Assembly: GCA_963422735.1 (NCBI GenBank)
Contig: OY730476.1
Coordinates: 3,328,001-3,392,000 of the forward strand
Reading direction: 5' to 3'
Source of the DNA: Candidatus Latescibacterota bacterium
Lineage (GTDB): Bacteria; Latescibacterota; UBA2968; UBA8231
Length of the DNA: 64,000 nucleotides
Position 1 is the stretch's first letter. Every line of letters starts with the position of its first letter. Positions 15,610 through 40,776 of the stretch are shown in pieces. Below the pieces are notes generated by a model. The model worked only from the letters and a program-made list of their open reading frames with translations. It searched no databases and was not told the origin of the DNA. The translations under genes and the position numbers were made by a program.

Positions 15610-16113
15610 CTATAACCCCAGAATCTCGCGCGTTTTTTGCGGCAGCGCCCGCCAGTTGGCGATGAGGTAACGGTTGCCATCGACATCCTCGATGATGGCC
15701 CGGCCGCCGGAGAGCATGCGCACATTGGTGCGATAGCTGCGGATTTCGAGCTGGCGAGGGCCGCTGGTGGTTTCGATCTGGCCGCGCAGCACCCCGAATT
15801 CCTCGTCGAGATTGTTGAAAGCGAGGACCTGCGGGTGGAAGTAAATCTTCCCGAGCTCGTCTAGGAGTGCTTGGCGGCTTTGGTCGTCGAGCTGCTGCGG
15901 GTCTTCGATTATGCCGAGTTCTTGGTCTTCGGCGGCAAAGACGCCGACATAGCGGTCGGACTCTTCTAACGGGAAGGCGCGGCGGATCTTGAGGTCAGTG
16001 TATTCCTCACCGTCGAGTCTGAGAATCAAGCTGCCTCGCTCGGAGCGGCTGAAGCGCATCTTTCGCGGGTTGAGCAGAAAATCCTCGTAGGAATAGCTGT
16101 GTGTCTCGCTCAT
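15610..16113 (-). CDS. DUF1854 domain protein
   Basis: RRAFPL..YVGV, ELG.YF.P, IEDVDGNRY; overlaps the stop of the ABC transporter gene. Confidence 0.8.
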   Translation of the reverse strand: MSETHSYSYEDFLLNPRKMRFSRSERGSLILRLDGEEYTDLKIRRAFPLEESDRYVGVFAAEDQELGIIEDPQQLDDQSRQALLDELGKIYFHPQVLAFNNLDEEFGVLRGQIETTSGPRQLEIRSYRTNVRMLSGGRAIIEDVDGNRYLIANWRALPQKTREILGL

Positions 16114-25100: not shown

Positions 25101-26762
25101 ATGTTCTTGTTGCAAGGGGCACCGGAGTCCATGTTGCGTTGGCACTATCGAAGCCGACACGATTCCCTGATTGCCGTTTCCAATCGGGAATTTTACGATG
25201 GCCGCTTGATGATCTTCCCTAGCCCCGGGGTGAATCCCTACGCCAAGGGCTTGACGTTTAACCATCTGCCCGAGTCAGTGTACGAGCGCGGTAGTTCGCG
25301 CACTAATCCGGTGGAGGCGCGTGCTGTAGCCGAGGCGGTCATGCGCCACGCCAAAGCGCACCCGGATACGACTTTGGGAGTGGTTGCATTTTCGACGGCT
25401 CAACGCGACTGTATTTTGCTGGAAATCGAGCGGTTGCGGCGCTTGGATCCGAGTTGTGAGGAATTTTTCACTACGGGTGCGCTAGAAGGCTTTTTCGTAA
25501 AAAACTTGGAGAACGTGCAGGGGGATGAGCGCGATGTGATTTTCATCAGCATTGGCTATGGCCGTACGACCGCCGGCAACATGAGTACGAGTTTTGGTCC
25601 GGTGAATCGCGACGGCGGTGAGCGCCGCTTGAATGTGTTGATCACGCGCGCGCACTTGGCGATGGAGGTCTTTAGCAATTTTACGGCGGACGACATTAAA
25701 ACCGAGAGCAATTCGCCGTTTGGGATTCGCGCCTTGAAAAGCTTCTTGCACTACGCGCAGACCGGTGAATTAGAGCATCGCCACGAAACCGGAAAGGAGG
25801 CGGATTCGCCGTTTGAGGAGGCCGTGCGCGACGCCATTCTCCGGCTAGGCTATGACATTGAGCCACAAGTGGGTTCGGCAGGTTTTTATATTGACATTGC
25901 CGTGCGCGACCCCCAAAAGCCCGGCCGCTATATTTTGGCGGTAGAGTGCGACGGCGCGAGTTATCACAGCTCAGCAACGGCCCGTGACCGCGACCGTTTG
26001 CGCCAAAGTGTGCTAGAGGGCTTAGGCTGGCGTTTCCATCGCATTTGGAGTACCGACTGGTTCCGGGATCCCCATAGAGAAAGCGTGCGTCTCAAGGATT
26101 CTATTGACCAAGTGCTGCGCTTTTACGAGGCGGAAGAAACCCACGCCGAGCAACCCCGTGCCGCAGCGCAGCCCAAGCGCATCGAGCGCGACGAGCCGAC
26201 GGAAAACAACTTGCGGGCTGACGCCTATGTGTTGGCCACGGGCGATTTGGGCATTGCTGATTTCGCTGAGATCCACGAGTTGCCATTAGGCAACGTCGCT
26301 CAGGCCATGCGCAAGGTAATTGACATTGAAGGCCCCGTTCACCTGACAGAGGCGGCGCGGCGACTCGCTGAATCGGCCGGCTTTGCCCGCGTGGGTTCGC
26401 GAATACTAGGGCATATAAAACGAGCCGCCGAATACGGCCAAAGGAATGGGTTCCTCTATTTAGAAGGCGACTTCCTGTTTGCCGATAGAGACAAGCCTGT
26501 ACGGATTCGCGACCGCTCGGACATGCCTCCCACCGTTAAGAACATCGAACTGGTACCCGACGAGGAAATTCGCGCGGCCCTGATCGCGGCAATCCGTGCA
26601 GCCTTTAGCCTATCGGAAGAAGAGGCCGTTTCTGAGGCCCTGTCGCTGATGGGCTTTCGCCGCGTAACAGTTAAAGCGAAGCGGAAGGTAGGATCCGCGC
26701 TGAGAAAGCTGGAGCAGGACGGCGCGGTAACGGTTGAGGACGGCAAGGTTTCGGTCGCTTGA
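22104..26762 (+). CDS. DUF4011 / SF1 (UPF1-like) helicase / Vsr-like endonuclease / DUF3320 protein (Hhe-like defence protein)
   Basis: LLDMGLRGNTLLNF, GPPGTGKS, DEASQ, HYRS, VQGDERD, C-terminal FYIDIAV..AVECDGASYH..RDRLRQ..GWRFHRIWSTDW. Confidence 0.88.
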   Translation: MQFLAEKLEVSRSELLDMGLRGNTLLNFRPSAKTLEVIDEKSREVFQILVAEQKPMAFIPVPASLEAESDPQALPKILADQYADHRYTDNRLQTKLTADALDKSLLKISAEAESYYQEQGVDLLYLALGFLTWYEDKSSSTPRKAPLVLVPVALERGSARSRYKVAYTEADLGPNLTLATKLKSEFEITLPEFGEELDLDGYLKEVADSVDHQPRWQVQADEIALGFFSFGKFQMYQDLDPNNWPEGHKPYDHEVLQKLIDSGFGGVGDGSLSTPCEETSSELPELTDLHFVLDADSSQTQAVMAVKQGTNLVIQGPPGTGKSQTITNIIAEALADEKTVLFVAEKMAALEVVKRRLDECHLGDAVLELHSHKSNKSAVLRELRRTLELGPPAVENHAAKKRRHAQLREQLDAYCREVNRPILTSGTSYINAQGHLLKLREESGECELPGLDFAEFRHWDGDAFTNACANVRELVEHLEAMGIPARSPFAQSTLEHISPIEQNEVVTCLTKALASLGDCRKLGDTLSEKIGLDGPENLAAMSAICRAGERVLNAPALEGVQLTAADWKHRSEQVEALIQAGEEMTVLQDKRREQLIEQAWQANLLSVRQAWATTGRHWWRFIFPSFHRARRTLQGLMKDELPASAEVCVALIDDILKYQALCKPYAEHESLGASLLGIQWKGLHSDWSSLKELSAYVVGLHKEVGEGTVPEGLLKFLESGGNLGGCEEQLETLERAAGELQELIDAVSQRLGTEVRSIEERPLGALEDELNRWRDQIGTLEQMVHYNHLRKKLRTSGLEQIDRLSYDWTWPPALLLISLKKAYYEGLVNEAYDKSETLKRFNRMSHESAINEFRRLDEELLHHAQEELVLKHYHSLPAANAAGEMAIIRREINKKRRHMPIRRLIVQAGRAIQQIKPVFMMSPMSVATYLEQGALDFDLVVFDEASQVKVVDAIGPILRGEQVVVVGDTRQMPPTDFFTKALELDNEESQTADIESILSMFLLQGAPESMLRWHYRSRHDSLIAVSNREFYDGRLMIFPSPGVNPYAKGLTFNHLPESVYERGSSRTNPVEARAVAEAVMRHAKAHPDTTLGVVAFSTAQRDCILLEIERLRRLDPSCEEFFTTGALEGFFVKNLENVQGDERDVIFISIGYGRTTAGNMSTSFGPVNRDGGERRLNVLITRAHLAMEVFSNFTADDIKTESNSPFGIRALKSFLHYAQTGELEHRHETGKEADSPFEEAVRDAILRLGYDIEPQVGSAGFYIDIAVRDPQKPGRYILAVECDGASYHSSATARDRDRLRQSVLEGLGWRFHRIWSTDWFRDPHRESVRLKDSIDQVLRFYEAEETHAEQPRAAAQPKRIERDEPTENNLRADAYVLATGDLGIADFAEIHELPLGNVAQAMRKVIDIEGPVHLTEAARRLAESAGFARVGSRILGHIKRAAEYGQRNGFLYLEGDFLFADRDKPVRIRDRSDMPPTVKNIELVPDEEIRAALIAAIRAAFSLSEEEAVSEALSLMGFRRVTVKAKRKVGSALRKLEQDGAVTVEDGKVSVA

Positions 26763-26776: not shown

Positions 26777-28945
26777 TCAATCGCTCGGCAGTGTTGATTC
26801 CAGCCGGACGGCTTGCCCCGCTTCCAGCACCACTTTGCCGCACAGCCGCTCTTTGAGCGTAGTGTAACGCTGGGCGACCTTGTCGTTTGCAATGGCCAGC
26901 TTGAGTGCCTTGGGGGTGCCGACGATGACAATCATTTGCTTGGCGCGGGTAATCGCCGTGTAGAGCAGGTTGCGCTGGAGCATCACGTAGTGCTGGGTCG
27001 TCAGCGGCAGCACTACCACGGGAAATTCCGACCCCTGAGAGCGGTGGATGCTGATGGCGTAGGCGAGGGTTAGCTGGTCGAGATCGACTTGATCGTATTC
27101 CAAGGTGTAGTCAAAGCGCACGTAGAGCACCTGCTTTTCCGCGTCGAGCCGCTCGACCGTGCCGATGTCGCCGTTAAAAACGCCCTTGTCGTAGTTGTTT
27201 TTGATCTGCATGACCTTGTCGTCCACCCGGAACTCAGCCCCGCGATGGCGGTGCGCCTCGCCGTGCGGGTTGAGGTGCTGTTGCAGCCGCTGGTTGAGGT
27301 TGAGTGCGCCGGTCTCGCCGCGGTACATGGGCGAAAGCACTTGGATGTCGTCGCGCCGATCCCACCCCCGATAGCTGGGCAGCCGCGTGGCGCACAACTT
27401 CTCCACTAGCTCGACCACCTGCTCTGGGTCGCCCTCGCGAATGAAGTAGAAATCCGCGGCCACATGGTTTTCGACGATGGGCATTTCGCCGCTGTTGATG
27501 CGGTGCGCGTTGCGGATGATGTGGCTTTTTTTGGCTTGGCGAAAAATCTGCGTCAGGCGCACCACCGGCACTTCTGAGGAGTCGATGATGTCGCGGAGCA
27601 CGTTGCCCGGCCCCACCGAGGGCAACTGGTCAATGTCGCCGACTAGCACCAACCGAACGTGGTCGGGCAGGGCGCGCAGGAGCGCGTTCATCAGCACCAC
27701 GTCAATCATGGAAGCCTCATCGACGATCAGCGCGTCGAGTTTGAGGCGGTCGTCATAGCCCTTTTTGAATTGCCGCTCGCCCGGCTGAAATCCGAGCAGC
27801 CGATGAATGGTCTTGGCCTCTCGCCCACTGGCCTCGCTTAGCCGCTTGGCGGCGCGGCCTGTAGGCGAGCACAGCGCGACCTTGAGGCCACCTTCCTCCA
27901 AGACGCGCAAGATGCGCCGCGTGACCGTCGTTTTGCCGGTGCCCGGCCCGCCGGTCAGCACTAGGACCTTGCTCGTGGCAACCAACTCCACGGCCTGTCT
28001 TTGCGCTGGGGCCAATTCCAGCCCGTCTTCATCTTCTGTGGGCACGGCCAATTCTTCGGTCGGTGCTTGCAAAAGCCGCTTTAGCGACGATGCTGCGCCC
28101 ACTTCGGCGCGGTGGAGCGGCGGCAAATAGTAGCGCAGGTCTTCGGTGACCACGCCGTCGTTGGCGCGCAGGGCCTCTAATGCTTGTGGCAACAGCTCGG
28201 CGTTGATGTCCAAAATTTCGACGGCCCGCTCCATCATTTCGACGGCCGGCAAGTACACATGGCCTTCGTCGGCCGCTTCGGAGAGCAGGTAGCGGATGCC
28301 AGCCTGCACGCGCTCGGGTGCGTCGCGGCTGAGTCCCAAACGCTGGGCAATGCGATCGGCTATGCGGAAGCCGATCCCATCCACATCGCGCTCTAGGCGA
28401 TAGGGATCGCTGCGCACCTTTTGAATGGCCTCTTGACCATAGGTCTTGAAAATTTTTACCGCATAGCCGGTGGTAATTCCGTGCGACTGCAAAAAGACCA
28501 TTACGTCCTTGATTTGCCGCTGCTCGTCCCAAGCCGCGGCAATCAGCTCGACTTTCTTCTTGCCCAGCTTGGGCACTTCCTCTAGCCGGCGGGGATCCGC
28601 GTCGATGATGTCGAGTGTTTCCGCGCCAAAGTGATCGACTATGCGCTTGGCCGACCTCGGCCCAACGCCTTTGATCAAACCGGACCCGAGGTACTTTTGC
28701 ATGCCTTCGAGCGTCGAGGGATAAACGGCCTTATAGTGCTCCACCTTGAGTTGTTTGCCGTATTTGGGATGATTGGTCCACACGCCTTCGACTTCGACGC
28801 TCTCGCCCTCTTGGATGGAGGCAAGTGCCCCTACGATTGCGATCCGCTCCCGCTGGCCCTCGACGACTAAGCGCGCAATGGTATAGCCGTTTTCCGGGTT
28901 GTGGTAAGTCAGGCGATCTATAAAGCCTTTATACGATTGGTTCAT
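26777..28945 (-). CDS. recD2: ATP-dependent RecD-like helicase RecD2
   Basis: YLGSGLIKGVG HhH, GGPGTGKTT, PTGRAAKRL, DEASM, IHRSQGSEF, YTAITRA. Confidence 0.95.
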   Translation of the reverse strand: MNQSYKGFIDRLTYHNPENGYTIARLVVEGQRERIAIVGALASIQEGESVEVEGVWTNHPKYGKQLKVEHYKAVYPSTLEGMQKYLGSGLIKGVGPRSAKRIVDHFGAETLDIIDADPRRLEEVPKLGKKKVELIAAAWDEQRQIKDVMVFLQSHGITTGYAVKIFKTYGQEAIQKVRSDPYRLERDVDGIGFRIADRIAQRLGLSRDAPERVQAGIRYLLSEAADEGHVYLPAVEMMERAVEILDINAELLPQALEALRANDGVVTEDLRYYLPPLHRAEVGAASSLKRLLQAPTEELAVPTEDEDGLELAPAQRQAVELVATSKVLVLTGGPGTGKTTVTRRILRVLEEGGLKVALCSPTGRAAKRLSEASGREAKTIHRLLGFQPGERQFKKGYDDRLKLDALIVDEASMIDVVLMNALLRALPDHVRLVLVGDIDQLPSVGPGNVLRDIIDSSEVPVVRLTQIFRQAKKSHIIRNAHRINSGEMPIVENHVAADFYFIREGDPEQVVELVEKLCATRLPSYRGWDRRDDIQVLSPMYRGETGALNLNQRLQQHLNPHGEAHRHRGAEFRVDDKVMQIKNNYDKGVFNGDIGTVERLDAEKQVLYVRFDYTLEYDQVDLDQLTLAYAISIHRSQGSEFPVVVLPLTTQHYVMLQRNLLYTAITRAKQMIVIVGTPKALKLAIANDKVAQRYTTLKERLCGKVVLEAGQAVRLESTLPSD

Positions 28946-28954
28946 GTGCCACGC

Positions 28955-29569
28955 TCACAACGTGAAAGCACTGTACAGCAGTGCCATACTCCCCGCTCCC
29001 AGCGCGCCGCCCGCACCAAGCTGCATCGGAGTATGCGCCCGCAAGTAAAGCCGCGCCCAGGCGACGGCGGGCCAACTTAGCAAGAAGGGCCACGCCGCAC
29101 TGCCGACGCTGATCAACAATACGCAGGTTGCCCCCCCAACAGCCGCCGCGTGGATGCTGATCTTATAGGAGCGATTGATCCACCAGACCAAGAGCGTATT
29201 GACGACACAGGACGCGGCCGTGGCCAGCATCAAAGATGGGGCTCCGATCCCGTAGAGAGCCGCTCCCCCCAAAGCGTAACAAAGAGCACCCAGCAGGAGC
29301 AAGATACCGCGCCTGTTGCGGTCGTCTGTATAGGCTTTGTCGAGATACCCCGAGCGCACCAAGTGCCAAAGTAGCAACCCAGGTATCAAGGAGAAGGCGC
29401 CGATCGCCACCGCGCCGGCGAGCCAGTCGCCCAGTACGCGCGCTTGGACGCCGAAGACCAAGAGTGCCAACAGCGCGGGATTGAGCAAGTGCGAGAGGAA
29501 GCGTGCGGCTTGGTGCAGACGAAAAAAGGGACGAGCTAATTGCTCGCCCCTCTCTATTTCTTTTGCCAC
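28955..29569 (-). CDS. PAP2-like integral membrane protein
   Basis: KISIH..., WARLYLRAHTPMQ; probable GTG start overlapping the PqqD stop. Confidence 0.7.
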   Translation of the reverse strand: MAKEIERGEQLARPFFRLHQAARFLSHLLNPALLALLVFGVQARVLGDWLAGAVAIGAFSLIPGLLLWHLVRSGYLDKAYTDDRNRRGILLLLGALCYALGGAALYGIGAPSLMLATAASCVVNTLLVWWINRSYKISIHAAAVGGATCVLLISVGSAAWPFLLSWPAVAWARLYLRAHTPMQLGAGGALGAGSMALLYSAFTL

Positions 29570-29985
29570 TTTTTGCCGCTGGCTGCGCCGCGGTCGGGCG
29601 CCCTCTCTTCGCCCTCTAGCGCAAAGCCGACAAAGCGTTTCTGCCCGAGGGTCTTCAAATATTGGAGCAGAGAAACTTCGGCCTCCTTGCGGTTGAGCTG
29701 GTACTTTTCGCTGAGTAATTCGATCATCTTGCCGACCGAGTTGCGGCCGTTGCACATCCGCCAGACCTCGCTGCCGACCTCGTCGAGGGTGATTTTGCGC
29801 TGCTTGGGGATATAGAAAAACTTGGACAGCAGCCGCACTCTCCAGGTCTCTTGGCGCTTTATTAAAACCTGGACCTCGTCGTTGTCGTTGTTCTCCCAGC
29901 GCAGGGACTCATTGCGCGTTGGCCGCGACGCCAGCATAGCGGCCCGGCTCAGCTTGGGTGCCTTGTTTTTCGATAAAATGCCCAT
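29554..29985 (-). CDS. PqqD family (RRE-like) protein
   Basis: ITLDEVGSEVWRMCNGRNSVGKMIELLSEKY..SLLQYLKTLGQKRFV. Confidence 0.82.
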   Translation of the reverse strand: MGILSKNKAPKLSRAAMLASRPTRNESLRWENNDNDEVQVLIKRQETWRVRLLSKFFYIPKQRKITLDEVGSEVWRMCNGRNSVGKMIELLSEKYQLNRKEAEVSLLQYLKTLGQKRFVGFALEGEERAPDRGAASGKKWQKK

Positions 29986-30901
29986 CTACTACCTTGGTGA
30001 CTAGATCGTCTTCTGTATCTTTCTTGCGGTAGAGGTGCTCGACGATTGCGATTTTGTCAATGCTGGCATCGCGCCAGACGCACCCCCGCAGATACAGGCG
30101 CGGCCTCGGGTTCATAAAGGGCAGGGGACGCAGCAATTGACGCCAGCGACTGCGCGGCCGTCCCTCGACGCGAATGCCCTCGTGCTCCTGCACGGCCTCT
30201 GGAGCAATGTCCACCACCAAGTCGCGCAATTGTTTCTTAAAAAAAACCGGATACCAGTCTTGGATATGTGCGCCTTTGAGCATGATCCGGGCCATGCTCA
30301 ACCGATGCACCCTTAGAACTTGTTTGCCGAGGGAAAACTCTAGCTGGATATGGCCCGACTTGAGGGAATGGCTTTGTAGCTTGAGGTCGCTGGGCGCAAA
30401 AAACCGCAAGCCGTACACGCTCCACAGATGAGCGGACTCGCCTTCTTGGTCCACGAGCGATCTGAACACGGCCTCGGCTTGCTCGGGCAAAAACTCGTCT
30501 AGCTTGGCCAGCACTCTCAAGAGCACAACCCGCCCTGACTCCAAGGCGAGCGCTAGGTTGTACGCGCGGAAGTCGGCCTCCCAGATGAAGACCTCGTAGT
30601 CTCGGCCTTCGAGGAACTTCTTGTTCTTGAGGAATCGAGCGCGGCGCTGGACCTCAAAAGGGGCATCGACTTTTTGGGCCTTCTTTTGCAGGTTAGCCAA
30701 GTAGCGATCTACCAACTCGGTCAGGCGCAGGGCCTCGCCGCGGCCTTTGAGACGCCGCCACTCGATCTCGGCGCGCACAATTTCGGCGTCGTCGAGGCGG
30801 GCATAGCCCTTTTCAAAATCCCCGTCAACTCGGCCGAGATTCCAGTCGTCAGGCACGGACAGCCGCAGCCCTTGCCAAGCGAAATCCACCCAATCGCTCA
30901 T
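29909..30901 (-). CDS. Hypothetical cytoplasmic protein
   Basis: 330-aa ORF starting 2 nt after the upstream gene; no signal peptide. Confidence 0.8.
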   Translation of the reverse strand: MSDWVDFAWQGLRLSVPDDWNLGRVDGDFEKGYARLDDAEIVRAEIEWRRLKGRGEALRLTELVDRYLANLQKKAQKVDAPFEVQRRARFLKNKKFLEGRDYEVFIWEADFRAYNLALALESGRVVLLRVLAKLDEFLPEQAEAVFRSLVDQEGESAHLWSVYGLRFFAPSDLKLQSHSLKSGHIQLEFSLGKQVLRVHRLSMARIMLKGAHIQDWYPVFFKKQLRDLVVDIAPEAVQEHEGIRVEGRPRSRWRQLLRPLPFMNPRPRLYLRGCVWRDASIDKIAIVEHLYRKKDTEDDLVTKVVDGHFIEKQGTQAEPGRYAGVAANAQ

Positions 30902-30902
30902 G

Positions 30903-33323
30903 CTAGAAGATCAGCACGGAGACCGATCTCTGGATTAGGGCGACCCCCACCGATGCCATCCCCATCAAGGCCATGCCGCAGGAGAAGCCCACCGCCAGAA
31001 TCGGAGCAAACTGCCGCCACTCCTGCCGCCCGTACTTGTTCCAGAAGTAGTAGCGAGCCAAGAGTGCGCCGACAATCTCGGTGACGACTAAGTGCGGTAG
31101 GGACGTCAGCGAGCGCACGAAGCCAAAGATCAACAGGATCGGCAGCCCGAGGATGGAGAGCAGAATGAAACTCACCAGCCCGAAGCCGGCCCCAAAGGCG
31201 ATGACCTCTCCCTTGAGTGCTCTATACAGCCAAGGCTCGTCGGTGGAACGCTGGATCCAGGAGCTGGTAAAGAGCGGATCGGTATCGACCTCAAAGTAGA
31301 AGGACCATCCCGCGGGAACGGCTTGCCCGGTCTTTACTTCGAGGGTTGGGCGGGGGTCGCGGATGACGGCGTCCATGGCCGGCCCTAGCGGCGCAATCGC
31401 TGGCAGGCCCTCGACAATGTCCTCTTCGGCTAGCTGTTCGTCGCGTAGGTAGCGCTCGGCGACGATGTCGGGTGCCCCTTGCTCAAAGTACGAGTAGAAA
31501 ACTTGGGTTGGCATCCACGGGCCGATTTGACCGCGCTTGCCGTTGGAGTCCAGCCACTCCTGATCCACCAGCCGCACCCGCCAGTACCACCACTCGTTCT
31601 CGATCAGGTTAGCCGGGGTCCATCCCGCCCGATCACTGTCTATGGCCAATTCGCTGCGCATGGTGCCGGTTATAAAGAGGCATTGCTGGTAGGCCCGCAG
31701 CCGCCAGAATAGCTGGGCATAGGGGTAGGAGGCCGACGGGATTGGTGCCAGTTTCCAGATATAGGAGCCGTAGAGAAAACTGGTAAAGAGCACGATTGGC
31801 ACCATGAAAACCTCGGCGCGGATGATGCTGGTAAACTGGGTGCCGGTCAATTCGATCTCGCGGAACTTCATGGTCTGGGCACCGTAATTGCCCAAGGGAA
31901 ACGGAATGAACCAGATGTCAACGCCGCGATACCCAGAGAGAATAATCGTCGCCTCGCGCACGAAGGGGATGTCCACCGTCTGCCCCACCATCCCGACTAG
32001 GCGAGCATTGACAAAGGACTGAAAGGGCGTGAATACGAAACCAAAAAAGAGGAAAAACCATATAAATTGGGCAATGCCCGGCAGCAGCCAAGCGGCGATG
32101 CCGATTAGGCCGGCCGTGGCCAAGGCATACAGGGCTAGCGCCAGCCAGATGGGGAAATCGCCGCGACCCTCAGGGGTGGCAAAGCTGCGCTTGGGACTGC
32201 CGTCATCCTCAGTGTTGGCCCTAGCTCTGTGCACGCTCTGAAGTACCTGATAGATGCCGATGACGGCGATGGCGATAGTGGTGCCGATGCCGAAGCTCAT
32301 CCAAAAATCGACGTTGTTGACGAAGAAGGTATCTATCGAGCCCATGCCTTGCCGCCACAAGTTAAGATAAGGCTCCTCTCGCCACGAAGGCGTCCAAGTA
32401 TAGAGCAGTGGATTGGCAATCGAGGCGACGACCACGCCGATAAAGGTGCCGACCACGCCCCAGAATGGCACCACTAGCCCGGTAAAGATCGGGCCCAAGT
32501 GCGCGGTAAACCCCAGCGGAGTCGCCGGGATGAAGTTGCCGGTGACTTGCGTGAAGTCAACAAAGGGAATGGGTATGAGTTGGATCGGCTCGGTCAGGAG
32601 TGCGCCGGTAATCGCCGGCAGGGCCACGTAGATCGTGCCAAAGACCAAGCCGATCATCGCTCCCGCTGAGAATACTCGCCAGCGCCAAGTCTCAAGTCCT
32701 TGAGTCGTCTCGGCCAGTGCTGTAGCACCTTGGGCGTTTACGGGCGCGAAAGGAAAGGGCAGGCGCTCGTAGTCGGAGCTGAGCCGGAAGAGCGCGTACG
32801 ACATGGTAAACCAGTTGACGCGCCAGATGATCATCCCCAAGACGAGGAGTACGATCGGCATCGCCCAATCCGCGTGCAGGAAGGTCCGCTCGACGATGGC
32901 TTGGGAGTCGGCCTGCGGTGCCACCCAAGTGGGGATCAGCTTGGCGATGCCAAACTGCTTGGCCGCCGGCGATTGCACCAAGTACTGGTTGTAGAGCAAG
33001 CCTTCAAAGGCACCGGTCTCAGCGGCAATCAGCGAGGCGGCCACGTAGAACAGCACATAGACTTCTTGACGCCGGAGGGAGGAAAAGGAGCGCTTGGTGA
33101 TTTCGGCGAAGAGGATGATGGTCACCCACTCGGCCGCCGCTCCCAAAGAGCCGCCGATCATCAGGCTCAAGTACATGTTGCCCGGCACCATGATAAAGGC
33201 GACGAAGAACACGCCGAGGATGGCCTTGATCGTAAAGCCGTTCTCGAAGCGGTCCGGGACCTGCATTAGATCCCGATATTCTTCGATTTCTTGGTTCGGG
33301 TTTCTATTTTTGCTTCCGAACAC
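30903..33323 (-). CDS. OPT-like multipass membrane transporter with extracytoplasmic beta-domain insert
   Basis: Many TM segments, GGAGG RBS, C-terminal PILAVGFSCGMALMG reminiscent of the last OPT helix. Confidence 0.72.
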   Translation of the reverse strand: MFGSKNRNPNQEIEEYRDLMQVPDRFENGFTIKAILGVFFVAFIMVPGNMYLSLMIGGSLGAAAEWVTIILFAEITKRSFSSLRRQEVYVLFYVAASLIAAETGAFEGLLYNQYLVQSPAAKQFGIAKLIPTWVAPQADSQAIVERTFLHADWAMPIVLLVLGMIIWRVNWFTMSYALFRLSSDYERLPFPFAPVNAQGATALAETTQGLETWRWRVFSAGAMIGLVFGTIYVALPAITGALLTEPIQLIPIPFVDFTQVTGNFIPATPLGFTAHLGPIFTGLVVPFWGVVGTFIGVVVASIANPLLYTWTPSWREEPYLNLWRQGMGSIDTFFVNNVDFWMSFGIGTTIAIAVIGIYQVLQSVHRARANTEDDGSPKRSFATPEGRGDFPIWLALALYALATAGLIGIAAWLLPGIAQFIWFFLFFGFVFTPFQSFVNARLVGMVGQTVDIPFVREATIILSGYRGVDIWFIPFPLGNYGAQTMKFREIELTGTQFTSIIRAEVFMVPIVLFTSFLYGSYIWKLAPIPSASYPYAQLFWRLRAYQQCLFITGTMRSELAIDSDRAGWTPANLIENEWWYWRVRLVDQEWLDSNGKRGQIGPWMPTQVFYSYFEQGAPDIVAERYLRDEQLAEEDIVEGLPAIAPLGPAMDAVIRDPRPTLEVKTGQAVPAGWSFYFEVDTDPLFTSSWIQRSTDEPWLYRALKGEVIAFGAGFGLVSFILLSILGLPILLIFGFVRSLTSLPHLVVTEIVGALLARYYFWNKYGRQEWRQFAPILAVGFSCGMALMGMASVGVALIQRSVSVLIF

Positions 33324-33336
33324 TCGCTATCCTCCC

Positions 33337-36300
33337 TTACGCCGACACTTCGCTGCGCAGCCCTTGCAGAATTTCCGCGCCCTGCTGGCGGTAGCCTTCT
33401 TTGGCCTCGGCATCCACCGTGCGCCAGATGAGGAACTGTTTGCGGATGACGTTCATAAAGCGCTGGTTGACCCTCCGCCACGAGGCGTCCTCGCCGCTGA
33501 GTCGCTTAATTTGCAGGCCGACTGCGTAAATGTTGTGCTCGGCCTCTGGCATGGCCCGCACGGTGACGTGTTGGCTGACGCCCAAGTCGAAAGGAGCCAG
33601 CCAGATATTCATGTCGATGAGGTACCCTTCGCCGTTGGGCGTTTCTTCGCGGCTTAGCTGGGCGCCGTCGGTGTAGAAGGTGCCGATGGATTCCTCGCTG
33701 TAGGAGTCGAAGTAGCCGATGAGGAATACGCTTAAGCCTAAGACCTCGTGGCCGCTGACCGTAAAGGGGAACTCGAAATCCCACTGGTCGCCATCGGGCG
33801 GCGGCAGCTTCCACTTGCGGGTCACGTCCGGCACGGCCATCTGCGAAGCCTTGCGTGCCGGATAGATCGTCGAGAGCATGACCACGGCCATCACTAGCAT
33901 ACAGGAGAGCACTGCGGCTACCGAGGAGTAGTTGAGCGTAAAGCCGCCTAAAAGATCGGACTCGATGAGCACCTTGGCGATTACTTGGCCGCTGAGATAA
34001 CCGGCGACGACGCCCAGCACCGAATATACGCAACTCTCGGCGATAAACAGCCAAGAGATATGGCCGGGGGCTAGGCCCACCGAAGAGTAGATGCCGATTT
34101 CGCGGAAGCGCTCGTACACGCTGCCCATCATGGTGTTGAGCACAATAAGCGAGGCGATCAGCATGGGGATGAACAAGTTGCTCATCCCGGAAAAGGAGGT
34201 CAGCCCTAGCGATGAGTAGATCGCCACCTTGATGTATTCGTCGCCGGGCTCCTTGATCCCGGCGAACAGCGTCACCGCGAGGCGCGAGAGGAACTCCTCG
34301 ACCTCGGTGCGCACGTCGCTGCCCTCGGGGAAGCGCACGGCCACGGATTGCAGGGGGTTGCCGCTGCCGACGTTGCGCAGCGTGTGGTAGGGCGCGATTA
34401 GGATGTTGGCTGGCTCTAGATGGACAAAGGGCTTGATGACGACCTGGGCATCCTCCAAGCCCTGCTTCTCGCGCTGCTCCTCCTCGGCTATTTCCTGCAC
34501 GGCTTGGCCGCCGGTGACGGCGAAGTCGGCCGGCGTCAGGATTTCGTCGTCGAGGTCTTTGAGGTCCTTCATCCGCTTGGAGTCGAGGACGCCTACTACT
34601 GTAAACAAGTCGCCGAAGACCCTGACTTGCGTTCGGCCGACTTCGGCCAAGTCGATGTCGAGATGGGCCTCCTTGACCATGTCGATGGGCAGGATACAGA
34701 CCTTGTCCTCGCCCGGCTTAAACCACCGCCCGGCCACTAGGGCTTGATCCAGCCCAGTGACCTCGGTTTCCTCCGGGGTCAATCCGAGGACGCCGAGCGC
34801 GTTATGGGCCTTGTCGCCGTGTTTTATTTTGATGTGTGCCTTGGCCTTGTTGCTGTACCAGCTACGCGGTGCGACCGCGGTCCGATCACCGAAATTGCTG
34901 CGGGCGTATTCGAGCACGGAATCTTCCATCGGATTCCACGCCTTGCTGCGGATTAGGATGCCTTCATAGAGGCCCTCGTTGTCGCGACTGATTTGGTTGA
35001 ACCGCAGGCCCGTGCGGATGGAAGTGAAGGAGAGGACCGTAAAGGTCAGCAACAAGAGCGTGGTGAAGGTGAGGACTGTGCGCGTCTTGCGCCGCTTCAT
35101 GTTGGAAATCCCGAGATGGAAGGCCGTCAGCGAGGCCGAAGAGCGGCTGACGTCCGTGTCGTGGATCACGGCTACCTCAGTGCGCAGCTTCTTCATTTGC
35201 TCGTTGAAGCGGCCGGAAATGATCGACATCACGAGAACGGCCAGCGCGATGATGATGAAAGCAAGCAGGATGATGAAGGGATTGGATAGCTGAAAGGCCG
35301 GATGTACCATCCACAACACGATCCAGATCGCCAGGAAAACCCCGACAAAGCCGATGATCTGATTGCGGATCGTGGCGGCCGTAAAAATAAGCCGCTCGGT
35401 AAAAAAGGCGCAGGGAAGGACGAGGGCCATAAAGAAGATAATGCCCTGAACGACGTCGTTTTGGGTGGATTTGACGTCTGGATAGGCGCGCGACTCTAGC
35501 CCGAAGGCTGCGCGCGTGTGGCGCACGAAATCGCCCCAGCGCAGCTCGGTGCCAGCCACTGCGGCTTGGTCTAGCTCGGTCTCGGCCCGGTAGTGGAGGT
35601 CGTTGAGGCGCTGGTTTTCAATGGCAAAGCTCCGCAGTTCGCGCATCCGCGACTCGTCGAGATTCCACATGTCTTGGGCGGCTTGGAAGGTCGTGCGGGC
35701 AAAAGAGGTGCCGGGGCGGATCTCAAAGCCCTCGCCTTCGGCCTTGTCTTTGTCGGTGACGCTGGTGGCGTTGAGCAGCAGCGAGCGAAAGCCGAGTATG
35801 CCCGCGCCAAAACCCATTTTTATGCGCGAGCCGGGCCGTGCGAAGAGCACTCCGACCGGCTCGTTTTGGGCCGAGGGGCCTTCGCCGATGGTGTAACCGT
35901 ACTCCACGGGCGCGCTGTTCGTCTCGTCGAAGACCTGTACGTTGGACAGCTTGGTGAGATAGCGCGGATCGACGATGTCGAAGAAATTGTAGGGCACGCA
36001 GGGGAAGAGGATGACCATCCACTGCTTGTCGCGCCAGTCCATGGAGACCTTCATCGGGTAGATCTCGTCGCCTTGTACGCCGCGGTCCGGGGCGTAGGTG
36101 ATGCGGCCGGTGATCGGGTCCATGTAGTAGCCCTCGATCTGCACGTTGTTGACCCGTACCCGATTTACGTAAAAGGCCCCCTTATCATTGACGACCTCGT
36201 AGTACTCACCGCGCACGCCTTTATACGACTTTTTCTTGCCGTTGCGCACGACGGCCACTGCGTCTGCACGCGGCAGGTCGGGGATGATGCTGCGGCGCGG

Positions 36301-38163
36301 AAAGACCATGGTCCGGCCGCGAAGCGAGCGCAGATTGTCGCGCAGGCGCATCTTGAAGTCCGGGAAAAGCTCTGGGTCTTCAAAGGCCATCTCGAACATA
36401 CCGGAGAGCACCCGGATCTGTTTGGCGAGATTGGCGTGGTTGACGCGCTCGGCCCGGTCTAAGGGCGTATCGACGAGGAAGCGCGCGTCGTTGACTGTGA
36501 CAAAGGCCAACGCTGGCGTACCGGTTGCCAACACCAATTCGCTGTTGACCGATATTTCGCCCGGTACAAAGGTCTGCCAGCTCATCCCGCCTTCGGGACT
36601 GATGCCATTGACCAGCACGTCGCGCCGCTGGTAGTCTAACTCGCGGCTGATCTTGCGCGCATAAGCCATAAAGTTCTTGCCAAAGGGCGCGAAGTAGCGC
36701 TTGTAGTAAAAGCTGGTATTGCTATTCCAGACCCCAAGTTCGTCGGTCTGCGACGAAAGGTCGAGGCTAATGAAGAGATTGACTGCGAGCGAATCGACTT
36801 TGGGGTCGGCCCAGCGTTTGTAGAGCGCGAGGCGCAAGTCGTCGTCCGAGCGCAACTCATCAACAAGTTCGTGGCGATTTTTGAATCGCTTGCCGGCGAG
36901 GTGCAGTGCGCCTTCTTCTCGGCTCAGCAGCCTCTTAATGCCCTCTATTGTCTTTTTCCACAAGCCCCATGAGCTGCTGGATGTGTCTTCCTCTTGGCCC
37001 AGCAGCCCTTCAGCGAGTGCGGCGTCGGCAATGTGCGCGGCCAAGTCGGTGCGCCCTTCGGCAACGTTCCGCACGAGGGCTTCTTTGCCGGTAAACTCCT
37101 CCTCGCCGATGGCGTAGTGGATGCCGTCTTGGGCGATCATGTTCCGTGCGAGTGCGGCATCGACGACCCGCCGCACCAGCATGTGTTCGATAAAAGGATC
37201 CTCTTTACGCAAATAGCGCTGGATGAAATCATCGACCCCGCGCAAGCCCAAGTGGTGGGCCGAAGTAGCGAGGAAGACGACCGTGCGCGCCGGCGGGTTC
37301 GCACGAAAATAGCGCGCTATTTCCAACAGCGCAGTAATACTGGAGGCCTGCTCGGCCCCCGGGGCGAGGGCCGGCACGACCGACATGGCGTCGTAGTACG
37401 CCTCCAGCACGATCACGTCCTCTTTCATCAAGGGATCGTATCCAGGGATCGTGCCGAGGATATTCCAAGCGGGACGTCGCTCCCAATCCATGCGGTACTC
37501 CAAGTGGAGCGTCTGCTCACCTCCTGCGGCCAACTGGCGGCGCAAGTGCTGGCCGGCTTGGCGATTGATCCAGAACCTCGGCAGGCCGAGCGGCATGGTG
37601 AGGAACTTCTTTTCGCCCTCCAAGTACACGGTGGAGTCCGGCTCGATAAAGACGATGGCCTGGGCCCCGAGATAGGCGGCATTGAGCCAAGCGTCGCCCG
37701 AATTGAAGTCCATCAGAGCCACAGCCCCTTCGACTTGTTTGCCGTCCATGTCCGCGTACTCGCCCTTGCCGGCGTCTATCAAGCGTCCGGTCACCCCGCC
37801 TTCGGGCAGCGTCGAGGTTTTGACTAGATTGGGCCAGAGGCCGTGGATTGGCACTTGTTCGCCGCTTTGGATGACCCGCAGGAATCCGCCCTTATCGACT
37901 GGAATCGAGACATCGTATTCGTGGACAACGACGTCGTCAAGGCCGATTGCACGGAAGCGTTCCTGCACGATCTGGGCCGCTTGATCGGCACCTGGATAGC
38001 CGGCAACTCTAGACCCCAAGCCGGCAAAAATGTCCATCGTCTGCTGCACGCGCTCGACCGGGGCCGTGCGTACCAACTCGGCAAAATCGACCTCGGCCCG
38101 GGCCAGTGCCGCGCTGGCCAAAATCCAGCCGAGGGCCATCCACCTCACCGCGAACTTAGGCAT
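33337..38163 (-). CDS. M28-like/PA ectodomain fused to MacB/FtsX-type permease (1608 aa)
   Basis: Signal peptide; SRVAGYPG, AYYDAMSVVPALAPGAEQ; NMKRRKTRTVLT; LNTMMGSVYERFREIGIYSSVG. Confidence 0.85.
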   Translation of the reverse strand: MPKFAVRWMALGWILASAALARAEVDFAELVRTAPVERVQQTMDIFAGLGSRVAGYPGADQAAQIVQERFRAIGLDDVVVHEYDVSIPVDKGGFLRVIQSGEQVPIHGLWPNLVKTSTLPEGGVTGRLIDAGKGEYADMDGKQVEGAVALMDFNSGDAWLNAAYLGAQAIVFIEPDSTVYLEGEKKFLTMPLGLPRFWINRQAGQHLRRQLAAGGEQTLHLEYRMDWERRPAWNILGTIPGYDPLMKEDVIVLEAYYDAMSVVPALAPGAEQASSITALLEIARYFRANPPARTVVFLATSAHHLGLRGVDDFIQRYLRKEDPFIEHMLVRRVVDAALARNMIAQDGIHYAIGEEEFTGKEALVRNVAEGRTDLAAHIADAALAEGLLGQEEDTSSSSWGLWKKTIEGIKRLLSREEGALHLAGKRFKNRHELVDELRSDDDLRLALYKRWADPKVDSLAVNLFISLDLSSQTDELGVWNSNTSFYYKRYFAPFGKNFMAYARKISRELDYQRRDVLVNGISPEGGMSWQTFVPGEISVNSELVLATGTPALAFVTVNDARFLVDTPLDRAERVNHANLAKQIRVLSGMFEMAFEDPELFPDFKMRLRDNLRSLRGRTMVFPRRSIIPDLPRADAVAVVRNGKKKSYKGVRGEYYEVVNDKGAFYVNRVRVNNVQIEGYYMDPITGRITYAPDRGVQGDEIYPMKVSMDWRDKQWMVILFPCVPYNFFDIVDPRYLTKLSNVQVFDETNSAPVEYGYTIGEGPSAQNEPVGVLFARPGSRIKMGFGAGILGFRSLLLNATSVTDKDKAEGEGFEIRPGTSFARTTFQAAQDMWNLDESRMRELRSFAIENQRLNDLHYRAETELDQAAVAGTELRWGDFVRHTRAAFGLESRAYPDVKSTQNDVVQGIIFFMALVLPCAFFTERLIFTAATIRNQIIGFVGVFLAIWIVLWMVHPAFQLSNPFIILLAFIIIALAVLVMSIISGRFNEQMKKLRTEVAVIHDTDVSRSSASLTAFHLGISNMKRRKTRTVLTFTTLLLLTFTVLSFTSIRTGLRFNQISRDNEGLYEGILIRSKAWNPMEDSVLEYARSNFGDRTAVAPRSWYSNKAKAHIKIKHGDKAHNALGVLGLTPEETEVTGLDQALVAGRWFKPGEDKVCILPIDMVKEAHLDIDLAEVGRTQVRVFGDLFTVVGVLDSKRMKDLKDLDDEILTPADFAVTGGQAVQEIAEEEQREKQGLEDAQVVIKPFVHLEPANILIAPYHTLRNVGSGNPLQSVAVRFPEGSDVRTEVEEFLSRLAVTLFAGIKEPGDEYIKVAIYSSLGLTSFSGMSNLFIPMLIASLIVLNTMMGSVYERFREIGIYSSVGLAPGHISWLFIAESCVYSVLGVVAGYLSGQVIAKVLIESDLLGGFTLNYSSVAAVLSCMLVMAVVMLSTIYPARKASQMAVPDVTRKWKLPPPDGDQWDFEFPFTVSGHEVLGLSVFLIGYFDSYSEESIGTFYTDGAQLSREETPNGEGYLIDMNIWLAPFDLGVSQHVTVRAMPEAEHNIYAVGLQIKRLSGEDASWRRVNQRFMNVIRKQFLIWRTVDAEAKEGYRQQGAEILQGLRSEVSA

Positions 38164-38180
38164 AGCTATAAGTGCCTTTC

Positions 38181-40151
38181 TCAGATCCAGAAGACCACAT
38201 TGTCGGTCATGCCCGTAAAAAAGTCGATAATCAACCAGAGCCCCGCGATGAAAAACTGGCCTACGATTAGGCCTAAGAAGAAGGGACGCGCCCGGCGAAA
38301 AAGGCTAGGCCCGCCGTATTTCATCGCCACTAACTTTAAGAGCCAAGCGAGGGCAATGCTAAACCACAACTGGTCCATTAGCCATACGGCACCAATGGGG
38401 TATCCGATGGGATGCAGAGGCCACCACAAGAGCCGCTGGCGCGCCCACATAAGCAGGGCCATGATGCCCCCGCCGCCAAAAGTGTGAATCCAGCCATCGA
38501 TGTTCGGCTCGGTGGGTGCGCTTAACTTGGTGGTAATATAATCAAAAGGGGCGCGAGTTCCACCACCAAAAAACCACCCGTTGAGATTGATGCCGCCGTA
38601 TTCGTAGGCGAGGTACAAAATTGCTGCGACCGAGCCGACAATGCTGACAAAAATCGCCAGCAGCATGTACCAAAAAAGCGGACGCAGCCGCGGCCCTAAC
38701 TCCTCGCCCAATTTGAGACCGTGCGCGCAGGAAGCCATGACAAACGTGCGGATGTCCGCCGCCCACACATAGGTGTAGGCGAGGCCCACCATGCCCGCCG
38801 GGCCGATCGCCGAAGAACCTACGGCTGAGACCAAGGCCGACGAAGAAATCATCGGCCCGACCGCCGCTGCCACGCCCCCCTCTGCTACCACTCGTGTCAA
38901 GCCGACGAAGATAAGAATGGCCAGCATCAGGGTCAAAAAGGCCGCCCACAGCGGCAAACCGGACTGCCACAACCAGGTGGTCATCACCGCGACTCCGGCG
39001 AGCCAAGTTAAGACCGCCGCCCGATAGGAGAGCATCTCACCACTGTCGTCGATGCGGTTGTCACCCGTGAGGGCCTTGCGCAGCACGTCGCGCAGGTGTT
39101 CGCGGCCGACCCATAGGCCGAAGAACACTAAAACGATCATCGCCCCCTGCCCTTGGTGGGCGAGAATTGGCTCGCTAGGAGCGCCGTAAATGCCCAGCTT
39201 TTCGGTGCTGCCAACCCCTAAAACCCCCAGCCCCCCTCGGATCAGCTTGGCGATGGTGTTGAAAAACCACAGGCTGAAGGCGATGTCGAGGTTGATTAGA
39301 TAGGCGAACCCCACCATGGGAAAGCTCAGGCGGAATATCAGGCTGATGGTGTTGCGCAGAATCGGGACGGAGGAGACGAGCTGGATAGCGGGGATGAAGT
39401 TGAAGTACGCGTGTAGGGCGTTGAGGCTGCTGACGAGGGCGGGCAGGGCAAAGCCGATCCACATGATCGGGTTTTTGAAGAAAGGACCTAGAGCCTGTCC
39501 ACGGCCCCCACTCTCCACCATGGCCAAGGGAACTTGCACCAGCGGGTAAACTAGCCGCTCCCGCTCCACCCACTGGCGGCGCAGAATGACCATAGACGAG
39601 ATCATAACCAAGTACAGAGCCACGATTAGCACAGCCCAATAGCACAGCGGGCCGACCCAGACAGCCCAAGGTACCCCAGCGGTGCGCGGTGCCCCTTCGT
39701 AAAACCACTTGATCGCCTCGGGATCCTGCGGCGCGATCCAGTCGGGAAGGTGCGGCAGGATGTGCAAGGCCCACTCGTTTTCTGGGGTGGCGTAGTACTG
39801 GGCACCGGTGATGATCGTCAGCCAGTATTCGCTGAGGCCCATCGTGGGGATGGCCGAGGCCGTGAGCATCATAATGTACGCGACGATTAGCTCGCAGCGC
39901 CCGAGGGCCACAGGAACAATGAGGCGGGTCAACAAGGCGTTGAACAAGCCCGTTAGCACGAAGAAGAAGAATAGGGCACCCGCCGCGCTGAAATCAATCG
40001 ACATGTAGGAGCCGCGGATGACCATGTTGCCGTAAGGTGCTCCCACGGCGATGCACAGCGACCCTAGGGTGCCTGCCACCAGCGCTTTGGCGCTGAAGAC
40101 CGGCTCGGCTCGTATTGGGGCCTGAAGGGTAGGCTCTTTCGGGAAATCCAT
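38181..40151 (-). CDS. DUF6785/DUF6784-type multipass membrane protein (OPT-like)
   Basis: LRRQWVERERLVYPLVQVP, WWPLHPIGY, RPFFLGLIVG. Confidence 0.78.
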   Translation of the reverse strand: MDFPKEPTLQAPIRAEPVFSAKALVAGTLGSLCIAVGAPYGNMVIRGSYMSIDFSAAGALFFFFVLTGLFNALLTRLIVPVALGRCELIVAYIMMLTASAIPTMGLSEYWLTIITGAQYYATPENEWALHILPHLPDWIAPQDPEAIKWFYEGAPRTAGVPWAVWVGPLCYWAVLIVALYLVMISSMVILRRQWVERERLVYPLVQVPLAMVESGGRGQALGPFFKNPIMWIGFALPALVSSLNALHAYFNFIPAIQLVSSVPILRNTISLIFRLSFPMVGFAYLINLDIAFSLWFFNTIAKLIRGGLGVLGVGSTEKLGIYGAPSEPILAHQGQGAMIVLVFFGLWVGREHLRDVLRKALTGDNRIDDSGEMLSYRAAVLTWLAGVAVMTTWLWQSGLPLWAAFLTLMLAILIFVGLTRVVAEGGVAAAVGPMISSSALVSAVGSSAIGPAGMVGLAYTYVWAADIRTFVMASCAHGLKLGEELGPRLRPLFWYMLLAIFVSIVGSVAAILYLAYEYGGINLNGWFFGGGTRAPFDYITTKLSAPTEPNIDGWIHTFGGGGIMALLMWARQRLLWWPLHPIGYPIGAVWLMDQLWFSIALAWLLKLVAMKYGGPSLFRRARPFFLGLIVGQFFIAGLWLIIDFFTGMTDNVVFWI

Positions 40152-40188: not shown

Positions 40189-40776
40189 TTAATGGCCCTG
40201 GTCCAACCAGCCTATTTTCTCTAGTTGCTCCAAGGTCCACCAAGCTAATAGGCCGATCGCCCCCCCGCTCACCAAAGCGCTGAACAAGGCCAGCGGCAAA
40301 AGCGCGAACAGACCGCTGTGGCCGATATAGCCAGAGGCGAGAACGAGCTGGCTGAGTTGGTGCGCCAACGCGCCCCAGATGCTCAGGCCCACGACGCTGA
40401 AAAGCCGCGTTCCCATGCGGCGCACCGCAACCATGACCAGCCAGCTCGCCAAGCCAGCCCCGCCGCCGATGACAAAGGCCGGACCGGCAAATCCCCCGCT
40501 GAGCAAGCCACCAGCTACGATCTTGATGACACTAACGGCCAACGCCGGGCCGCCGCCAAAGCTCACCAGCGCGACCAAAACCGGCAGATTTCCGAGCCCC
40601 AACTTCATCCAGGGCAAGGGTTTGGGCACCAGCGATTCAAAGGCGAAGAGCACGATTGCTGCACTGGCCATAAGCCCCAAACGGGCCACGTCTCTAGGTC
40701 GCGCAAACATCAGCGAACCATCGCGTCTATGGGTGTGGCACCAGCGATTCTCAGCACTAGGCCGTTGGGCACGCAC
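40189..40776 (-). CDS. Gx transporter family protein (heptaprenyl diphosphate synthase component I / ECF S-like)
   Basis: FESLVPKPLPWMKLGLGN, GLSIWGALAHQLSQL; true start may be near 40710. Confidence 0.82.
   Translation of the reverse strand: MRAQRPSAENRWCHTHRRDGSLMFARPRDVARLGLMASAAIVLFAFESLVPKPLPWMKLGLGNLPVLVALVSFGGGPALAVSVIKIVAGGLLSGGFAGPAFVIGGGAGLASWLVMVAVRRMGTRLFSVVGLSIWGALAHQLSQLVLASGYIGHSGLFALLPLALFSALVSGGAIGLLAWWTLEQLEKIGWLDQGH

Follow-up and report, generated by a model that had tools for sequence, protein, structure and literature searches.

ATP-binding cassette (ABC) systems of type VII are few, and each of them (Lol, MacAB, FtsEX and YbbAP) defined a new envelope process. MacB acts by mechanotransmission on periplasmic peptide substrates. 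Known members of the oligopeptide transporter (OPT) family act alone as proton-coupled importers and are not encoded in an operon with an ABC motor. FtsEX-EnvC and YbbAP-TesA are described as type VII ABC systems with a degenerate or active periplasmic hydrolase partner. In this study we analysed a locus of five genes, here called D, M, O, P4 and Q, from a Candidatus Latescibacterota bacterium (GCA_963422735.1). The analysis links three protein types not known as partners: an FtsX-type motor, an OPT-fold membrane protein and a recognition element (RRE) of the kind known from ribosomally synthesized and post-translationally modified peptides (RiPPs). The locus lies in a stretch of 64,000 nucleotides (nt; contig OY730476.1, positions 3,328,001 to 3,392,000 of the forward strand), which we call the window; positions are those of the window unless a locus or genome handle (L or G number, G000 being the source genome) precedes them.

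All five genes are on the minus strand, in the order D (38181-40151), M (33337-38163), O (30903-33323), P4 (29909-30901) and Q (29554-29985). An earlier note on this DNA had described five co-oriented open reading frames (ORFs) with gaps under 20 nt or overlaps, and the ORF list gives exactly these five: the spacing is 17 nt between D and M, 13 nt between M and O and 1 nt between O and P4, and P4 and Q overlap by 77 nt, where the start of Q runs into the disordered tail of P4. Within the genus all five proteins are 73-95% identical, and across phyla they are kept with less identity, so the ORFs are real genes and not chance frames. We propose that they are five parts of an ABC machine of type VII (MacB/LolCDE/FtsEX-type) that is conserved and has six components, with the ancestral operon M-O-P4-Q-sFtsX-ABC, in which sFtsX is a short FtsX permease and ABC its ATPase. 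This machine would have an OPT-fold conduit and an RRE/P4 module and would probably serve peptide capture and uptake. We hold this proposal, taken as a whole, with a little less than even confidence.

The earlier note knew of no characterised system with this composition, and we likewise found no description of one in the accessible parts of the literature searched. There, DUF6785 and DUF6784 were not mentioned, PqqD was not found together with FtsX, the type VII ABC literature did not mention OPT or oligopeptide transporters, and three of the four terms FtsX, M28, OPT and PqqD stood together only in unrelated literature.

Composition of the five proteins

M is a protein of 1608 amino acids (aa) with a signal peptide. 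Its M28-like core, with an altered metal/catalytic site, spans residues 234-319 (37207-37464); the match to Peptidase_M28 (PF04389, 35.9 bits, cut-off 21.3) covers profile positions 1-79 of 193 only. It is followed by a MacB-like periplasmic core domain (PCD) at residues 1029-1215 (34519-35079; PF12704, 34.6 bits, cut-off 27) and an FtsX transmembrane (TM) domain at residues 1331-1442 (33838-34173; PF02687, 57 bits, cut-off 25.5), all on the minus strand. The solved sequences closest to the N-terminus are PA-domain M28 aminopeptidases, with YwaD first (E 2.5e-10), and those closest to the C-terminal third are MacB chains (5lil, E 3.4e-10), followed by YtrF and LolC. We infer a topology of a signal peptide, about 880 periplasmic residues, three TM helices, a MacB-type TM1-PCD-TM2-4 arrangement and a cytoplasmic tail of 165 aa. 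In the periplasmic part the M28/PA-like domain is followed by about 450 aa without an assigned family, and a PDB sequence search with residues 455-900 returned only noise (E>=0.03). The window copy of M has a charged, probably helical insertion of about 135 aa past the M28-like core (residues ~320-455, 36799-37204), which none of its five paralogues in the genome has.

The M28 site was surveyed in 88 M proteins, namely the window copy, its five paralogues and relatives from several phyla, with the site positions set by alignment to 6hc6, 2ek8 and 2anp and with residue roles that we take to be those of the Aeromonas aminopeptidase. At the position of the first His ligand we found Tyr in 83, Phe in 2 and His in 3 proteins, and at that of the bridging Asp, Glu in 81, Asp in 5 and Thr in 2. 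The catalytic Glu is replaced by His in 88 of 88 (H303 in the window copy), and the neighbouring ligand Glu by His in 58, Phe in 27, Tyr in 2 and Asn in 1. Thus M has neither the co-catalytic metal ligands in their canonical form nor the catalytic Glu-Glu pair, which has become His-His or His-Phe. Since the substitutes are themselves conserved, the domain looks repurposed, for binding or for a different metal site, rather than decayed; since the canonical catalytic residues are lost, a binding role of the M28-like head is likely. M may in this resemble the transferrin receptor and nicastrin, non-catalytic M28-fold receptors that carry an M28/PA-type ectodomain on a membrane protein with the canonical catalytic residues lost. 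As a difference, the substitutes in M are nearly invariant, so that an altered metal site or another chemistry is possible.

O (806 aa) is a membrane protein without a Pfam family. An AlphaFold2 model built with 25 relatives (predicted local distance difference test, pLDDT, 76.4) matched barley YS1 (HvYS1, 7wst) in Foldseek at E 5.7e-9 with a target TM-score of 0.64, whereas the next match had E 1.3e-2 and a TM-score of about 0.1. VIA-align superposed 550 of 601 residues on HvYS1 with Z 19.9 and a root-mean-square deviation (rmsd) of 4.5 Å; the next Z was 6.4, on an insert only. The identity to HvYS1 is 12-13%. By this model O has the TM fold of the OPT/yellow stripe-like (YSL) family, to which barley YS1 (7wst/7wsr) belongs. 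It differs from that family in failing the OPT sequence models, in an insert and in its place in an operon with an ABC motor. There was no match to PF03169 at E<=0.1, the TIGR00728 model (OPT C-terminal) gave 20.8 bits against a cut-off of 128.35 on residues 749-789 only, and the O profile had no sequence match in the PDB. The insert is an Ig-like beta-sandwich (residues 554-694, 31242-31664) that is found in the Latescibacterota copies; the copies of other lineages, of about 663 aa, are without it. The source genome has five copies of O.

D (656 aa) is a polytopic membrane protein with clear Pfam matches to DUF6785 (418.5 bits, cut-off 25) and DUF6784 (105.6 bits, cut-off 26.4). In hhalign it matched the O family with 94.9% probability (E 4.5e-8, 293 columns, in the N-terminal halves), so by profile comparison D is a distant, OPT-like homologue of O. 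Its support for an OPT fold is indirect, consisting of this alignment and of weak ESM Atlas leads at 0.77-0.79, below 0.8, to 'peptide transporter' and OPT clusters. The D profile had no sequence match in the PDB, and D had no match to PF03169 at E<=0.1.

P4 (330 aa) is a soluble protein with two tandem domains. Its AlphaFold2 model (pLDDT 84.6) matched CyanoP (2xb3) over residues 2-152 (VIA-align Z 12.3, 139 residues, rmsd 3.1), and residues 180-312 matched PA94 (1tu1, Z 9.9) and DcrB (6e8a, Z 9.6). Foldseek matches were TplEi/Tli4, a two-domain immunity protein, PsbP and the Eag chaperone SciW. No Pfam or NCBIfam family was found and the PDB profile search gave only noise (E 0.52), so the resemblance is at the level of the fold. 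In the model this is a tandem PsbP/Mog1/DcrB-like fold of the binding kind, unlike that of an enzyme. At E<=1e-3 the P4 family counts 1565 clusters, of which 783 remain at E<=1e-10, and its ESM Atlas neighbours are all annotated 'hypothetical'. Most members carry the motif CxxC ... WHC ... CH, which from its sequence is likely a zinc site; the window P4 and its close congeners have lost all these residues.

Q (143 aa) matched PqqD (PF05402) with 42.2 bits (cut-off 23.4) at residues 65-119 (29629-29793). It is the sole PqqD match in the source genome, is a full-length PqqD/RRE-type protein and is conserved across phyla. It also matched the lasso-peptide and pyrroloquinoline quinone PqqD models weakly, with all scores of PqqD-type NCBIfam models under the cut-offs. 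Q resembles PqqD and other RiPP recognition elements in this match to PF05402 but is unlike them in having no linked maturase or precursor; its conserved partners are P4 and membrane transport proteins. The C-terminus of Q (29554-29575) is a conserved ASGKKW-type tail in Latescibacterota, shortened in one Armatimonadota copy. A complex prediction of P4 with Q gave a median score of 0.22, under the mark of 0.32, and speaks neither for nor against an interaction.

From the sequence alone the earlier note had read these proteins as two OPT-like proteins, a pseudo-M28/FtsX fusion, a cytoplasmic adaptor and a stand-alone PqqD/RRE protein. These descriptions agree with the present results: O fits the YSL fold in both structural comparisons and D is its distant homologue in hhalign, M joins the M28, MacB_PCD and FtsX domains with a site that is non-canonical in the 88 proteins, the P4 model is a soluble and non-enzyme-like adaptor fold, and Q matches PF05402 with neither radical SAM nor YcaO in the window.

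The motor and the conserved operon

The earlier note had also stated that no ATPase, radical SAM or YcaO gene is present. This is true of the cluster; however, the system is not ATPase-less, because an ABC ATPase and a short FtsX permease (214-255 aa) sit in the same operon in other phyla, flanking M-O in these distant lineages. The source genome has a single pair of this kind, sFtsX at G000:C1:4648361-4649062 and the ATPase at 4649083-4649853, 1.28 Mb from the window. Its sFtsX is 46-55% and its ATPase 71-73% identical to the operon-linked copies, whereas the next paralogues reach 35% and 54%. Since the pair is orthologous to the operon-linked sFtsX and ATPase, the machine appears to be a type VII ABC system with its motor encoded at a distance; the link between this ATPase and M rests on gene neighbourhood and phyletic profile. 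Thus a comparison of operons between phyla can lead to the ATPase that an orphan FtsX permease seems to lack. A hidden ATPase near an M locus was considered and rejected: the only ABC ATPase in the window is part of a fused 763-aa ORF (16110-18401) about 11 kb beyond Q, and none of the six M loci of the genome has one closer than ~11 kb. The sFtsX-ABC pair itself follows rmlD-like, glycosyltransferase family 2 (GT2) and polyprenyl glycosylphosphotransferase-like genes (L134:3458-8291; G000:C1:4643458-4648291), which is an envelope-glycan context.

The type VII features are present at the fold level: an FtsX TM domain, a periplasmic core domain between TM1 and TM2, and an ATPase of the LolD/MacB/FtsE type. 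The best models for the ATPase were LolD (227 bits), MacB, DarD, YbbA and FtsE, all under their cut-offs, which are 307.75 for the LolD equivalog and 264.85 for FtsE (203.7 bits). sFtsX gave 54.2 bits with the Lol permease model (cut-off 362.45) and 25.8-30.9 with the FtsX models (cut-offs 225-255), and M gave 14.6 with LolC (cut-off 473) and 35 with the MacB equivalog (cut-off 966). The machine would be like LolCDE in that one type of ATPase serves two different FtsX-fold permeases, one pair per machine, with LolD as the best model of the ATPase and a MacB-type periplasmic core domain in M. It is unlike LolCDE in that all Lol equivalog scores are under the cut-offs, sFtsX is nearly without a periplasmic domain, and M has an ectodomain of about 880 aa, three extra TM helices and a cytoplasmic tail. 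In addition, no OPT-fold, RRE or PsbP-like partners are known in Lol. MacB chains are the closest in sequence to the TM/PCD part of M, but M lacks the fused nucleotide-binding domain of MacAB-TolC and no gene for a MacA-type adaptor was seen in the loci examined. We also considered that the sFtsX-ABC pair is simply the FtsEX or LolCDE of the cell and rejected this; candidates for both are encoded elsewhere in the genome, an FtsE-like/FtsX pair at about 4.875 Mb and a LolCDE-like set at about 1.41 Mb.

To follow the conservation of the genes we took species-representative genomes, in which 588 of 597 candidate stretches encode a relative, and used the best 80 M loci, with counts limited to those that have enough flanking DNA. 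O stands directly after M in 54 of 70 loci and is thus a core partner of M. P4 is found downstream of M in 26 of 67 and Q in 28 of 67. Sixty loci have enough DNA on either side of M; in these, D-M-O occurred in 14, D-M-O-P4-Q in 12, M-O-P4-Q in 12, D-M in 10, M alone in 6, M-O in 1 and M-O with sFtsX/ABC in 5. In the last group, L090, of an unclassified lineage, has the order M-O-P4-Q-sFtsX-ABC, L095 and L105 have M-O-Q-sFtsX-ABC, and L092 and L097 have neither P4 nor Q. The sFtsX-ABC pair is present in 9 of the 80 M loci, and its ATPase there is 69-73% identical to the source-genome copy. In one close relative, about 6.4 kb are inserted between M and O (L061:13824-20215).

The second sample consisted of 81 Armatimonadota genomes, with 30 P4 loci seen with 1.5-kb flanks and 8 of these extended to 12-18 kb. 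P4 was found in 64 of the 81 genomes as a single copy, M in 65 and sFtsX in 64. With 63 genomes that have all three genes and 16 that have none, 79 of 81 are concordant, and M and P4 agree in 80 of 81. The two discordant genomes are G116, without P4 only, and G088, without sFtsX only, at the threshold used. Because the genomes are mutually related, this co-occurrence is a pattern and not a statistic. Q follows P4 directly in 18 of the 30 loci; of these 18, 17 have sFtsX next after Q and 15 have O before P4. The complete order M-O-P4-Q-sFtsX-ABC was seen in 6 of the 8 extended loci. Of 41 Latescibacterota relatives, all have sFtsX and 40 have P4, never in more than one copy. The system is therefore near-universal and single-copy in the sampled Latescibacterota class and present in about four fifths of the sampled Armatimonadota, and it has relatives in Omnitrophota-labelled and other uncultured lineages. 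Gene neighbourhood and phylogenetic profiling, which the earlier note had named as a check, thus found the genes co-conserved, and its idea of one multi-subunit membrane system is borne out by this co-conservation, by the operon structure in two phyla, by the phyletic profile and by a fusion of M with D described below.

These data also bear on the idea that two unrelated modules merely abut here, an M-O(-D) transporter and an independent cytoplasmic P4-Q pair with another role. In families f2-f4 of the Latescibacterota, P4-Q stands apart from M, O and D in 5 of 5 loci, and P4 has no adjacent Q or O in 12 of the 30 Armatimonadota loci (1.5-kb flanks), as this idea would have it. We nevertheless regard it as very improbable: P4-Q lies between O and sFtsX-ABC in two phyla and in the unclassified lineage L090, the presence of M and P4 is concordant in all but one of the Armatimonadota genomes, and O and P4 are only 1 nt apart in the window.

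The position of D is different. D stands directly before M in 37 of 66 loci and is missing there in 29 of 66, and in the congeneric locus L033/L042 it is split over several reading frames beside intact M, O, P4 and Q, which is consistent with D being dispensable. D is an accessory and not a core part of the locus, so of its proposed membership in the machine the OPT-like relationship to O stands and a core role does not. One M paralogue of the source genome is joined in frame with a D paralogue in an ORF of 2094 aa (L011:6688-12972, G000:C1:1561688-1567972), and this fusion argues for contact between M and D. The DUF6785 family is greatly expanded in the source genome (4.95 Mb), with 42 matches, of which about 30 are full length, whereas none of 14 control genomes has any. 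The neighbours of 20 stand-alone D paralogues were scanned (55 proteins; ORFs under 120 aa and D genes without same-strand neighbours were excluded) and are mixed, with FG-GAP/UnbV in 6, tetratricopeptide repeat (TPR) in 5, sulfatase in 3 and PhyH in 3, and no dominant partner.

Direction and alternative functions

In the mechanism that we favour, an ATPase dimer would drive the M/sFtsX heterodimer as LolD drives LolC/LolE, and the ATP-powered motion of the periplasmic core of M and of its M28-like peptide-binding head would be coupled to the OPT-fold conduit O. Peptides would be caught outside and passed through O, and the RRE protein Q and the adaptor P4 would receive them at the cytoplasmic face. 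The 42 DUF6785 matches, six M and five O copies stand against one P4, one Q and one sFtsX-ABC pair, so a shared motor and cytoplasmic set may be inferred; in Latescibacterota the six M and five O copies would be specificity modules that use one such set. A more general and more tentative proposal is that this is a hybrid transporter class, in which the M/sFtsX/ATPase mechanotransducer acts from the periplasmic side to gate or load an OPT-fold channel, the RRE and the PsbP-like adaptor are the cytoplasmic acceptor or donor of peptides, and the shared set serves interchangeable M-O(-D) modules. If true, this would be the first case of an OPT system coupled to ATP and of an RRE that serves transport instead of peptide maturation, and another addition to the type VII ABC systems. 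It would also give a functional context to DUF6785, DUF6784 and the unnamed P4 family, and it points to a way in which uncultured polymer degraders may have diversified their handling of peptides or oligomers.

We favour uptake over export, without regarding the direction as settled, because characterised OPT members are importers and because this polymer degrader has enlarged M, O and D families. In the opposite direction, Q and P4 would bind, on the cytoplasmic side, a ribosomal peptide or a segment of a protein and pass it to O, and M would capture it in the periplasm and expel it or pass it on by MacB-like mechanotransmission. Such export would suit Q as a bona fide member of the PqqD family, since RREs bind leader peptides, and it would suit the fold match of P4 to SciW, which holds hydrophobic segments of exported effectors. 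The scores of the ATPase with the models of the darobactin exporter DarD and the DevA exporter nearly equal the LolD score, and known type VII systems work outward. However, family scans of the window showed neither a precursor-like gene nor a maturase such as radical SAM or YcaO; the genome has 15 radical SAM matches, none of them inside the window, and a single YcaO match outside it. Nor was a RiPP precursor or maturase seen among the flanking ORFs scanned beside the operon in other lineages, where a lasso cyclase was sought only through the Pfam scans of neighbours. Small ORFs near M were considered as precursor candidates and rejected; on inspection they proved to be a membrane peptide and a toxin-antitoxin pair. 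The latter lies between M and D paralogues (L010:8852-9489), consists by eye of a Phd/YefM-like antitoxin and a PIN-domain toxin and may have inserted in the M-D module. Removal of a leader by the M28-like site is doubtful because the site lacks the canonical catalytic pair, and characterised OPT members work inward. Export therefore seems unlikely to us.

Several points weigh against the uptake machine itself. To our knowledge, known type VII ABC systems do not import but act on periplasmic or outer-leaflet substrates, and we know RREs from peptide maturation, not from transport. The substrate, the direction and the physical contact of the subunits are conclusions drawn indirectly, and the heterogeneous neighbours of stand-alone D point to no substrate. 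The relatives sampled by genome are kin and not independent. The operon is also not always intact: in Latescibacterota families f2-f4, the adjacent P4-Q pair has no M, O or D within 18-19 kb, and 2 of the 8 extended Armatimonadota loci have P4-Q-sFtsX-ABC without M-O beside it. Furthermore, in 8 of the 30 Armatimonadota loci P4 lies, without Q, between a SEDS (shape, elongation, division and sporulation; FtsW/RodA) gene and a TPR gene (L139-L144, L148, L153), an arrangement with a possible link to cell-wall synthesis; 4 of the 30 have neither Q nor this arrangement.

The SEDS arrangement leads to another explanation, in which the machine is an FtsEX-EnvC-like regulator of envelope remodelling. 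The degenerate M28 head would activate or position a periplasmic hydrolase, for which the degenerate LytM domain of EnvC is an analogue, O would recycle released cell-wall peptides, and P4 and Q would link the machine to cell-wall synthesis. The 8 P4 genes directly after a SEDS gene and the core-like, single-copy conservation of P4, Q and sFtsX speak for such a function. So does the locus L105 of an unclassified lineage, in which the gene for an FtsY-type signal recognition particle receptor is directly upstream of M (7739-8671). This adjacency was observed only in L105, while the closely related L092 and L095 have a same-sized, unscanned ORF in that place. FtsEX-EnvC and YbbAP-TesA are described precedents of type VII systems with hydrolase partners, and like the present locus they combine an ATP-driven FtsX-type module with a peptidase-like or hydrolase element in the periplasm. 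There the element is a separate protein, whereas here the peptidase-like domain is fused to the permease; they have no OPT-fold or RRE partners, and the FtsE and FtsX model scores here are under the cut-offs. Moreover, no hydrolase partner is linked to the locus, the FtsE-like/FtsX pair and the LolCDE-like set are encoded separately in the genome, and six M paralogues suit a diversity of substrates better than one housekeeping regulator. A remodelling function is thus, in our judgement, rather improbable, and peptide uptake remains the explanation that we prefer.

Transcripts and surroundings of the locus

The RNA libraries of three studies gave contigs across the locus that are 90-95% alike to the window. 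Individual contigs join Q-P4-O-M (29570-34143) and M-D (34777-38774; 36679-39848), several stop at 29558-29603, just past the stop codon of Q, and 28900-29310 is without cover in four runs, which hints weakly that a transcript ends behind Q. The contigs are compatible with one transcription unit; as such contigs may contain DNA, they do not prove a single transcript. A promoter and terminator scan gave 4 promoter-like sites against 4.4 expected and was uninformative.

Upstream of D by 37 nt is Gx (40189-40776, minus strand), a PF07456 membrane protein (112.2 bits) that is possibly co-transcribed with D, as one RNA-library contig crosses the Gx-D junction. Of the 64 loci with sufficient flanking DNA, 24 have Gx before (D-)M, and it was seen only in Latescibacterota versions of the locus. 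Apart from Gx, the flanks hold unrelated housekeeping or helicase genes in the Pfam and NCBIfam scans: RecD2, a PAP2-like ORF and a DUF4011 helicase-nuclease are found past Q, and RelA/SpoT, an aminotransferase, a GT2 and a Mur ligase at the opposite end. The DUF4011 ORF (22104-26762, 1552 aa) adjoins RecD2 and contains DUF4011, an AAA_11/AAA_12 helicase, an MTES_1575 nuclease and DUF3320. The stretch that holds it is lower in GC content (0.55 vs ~0.60), and the ORF may be a defence or mobile element.

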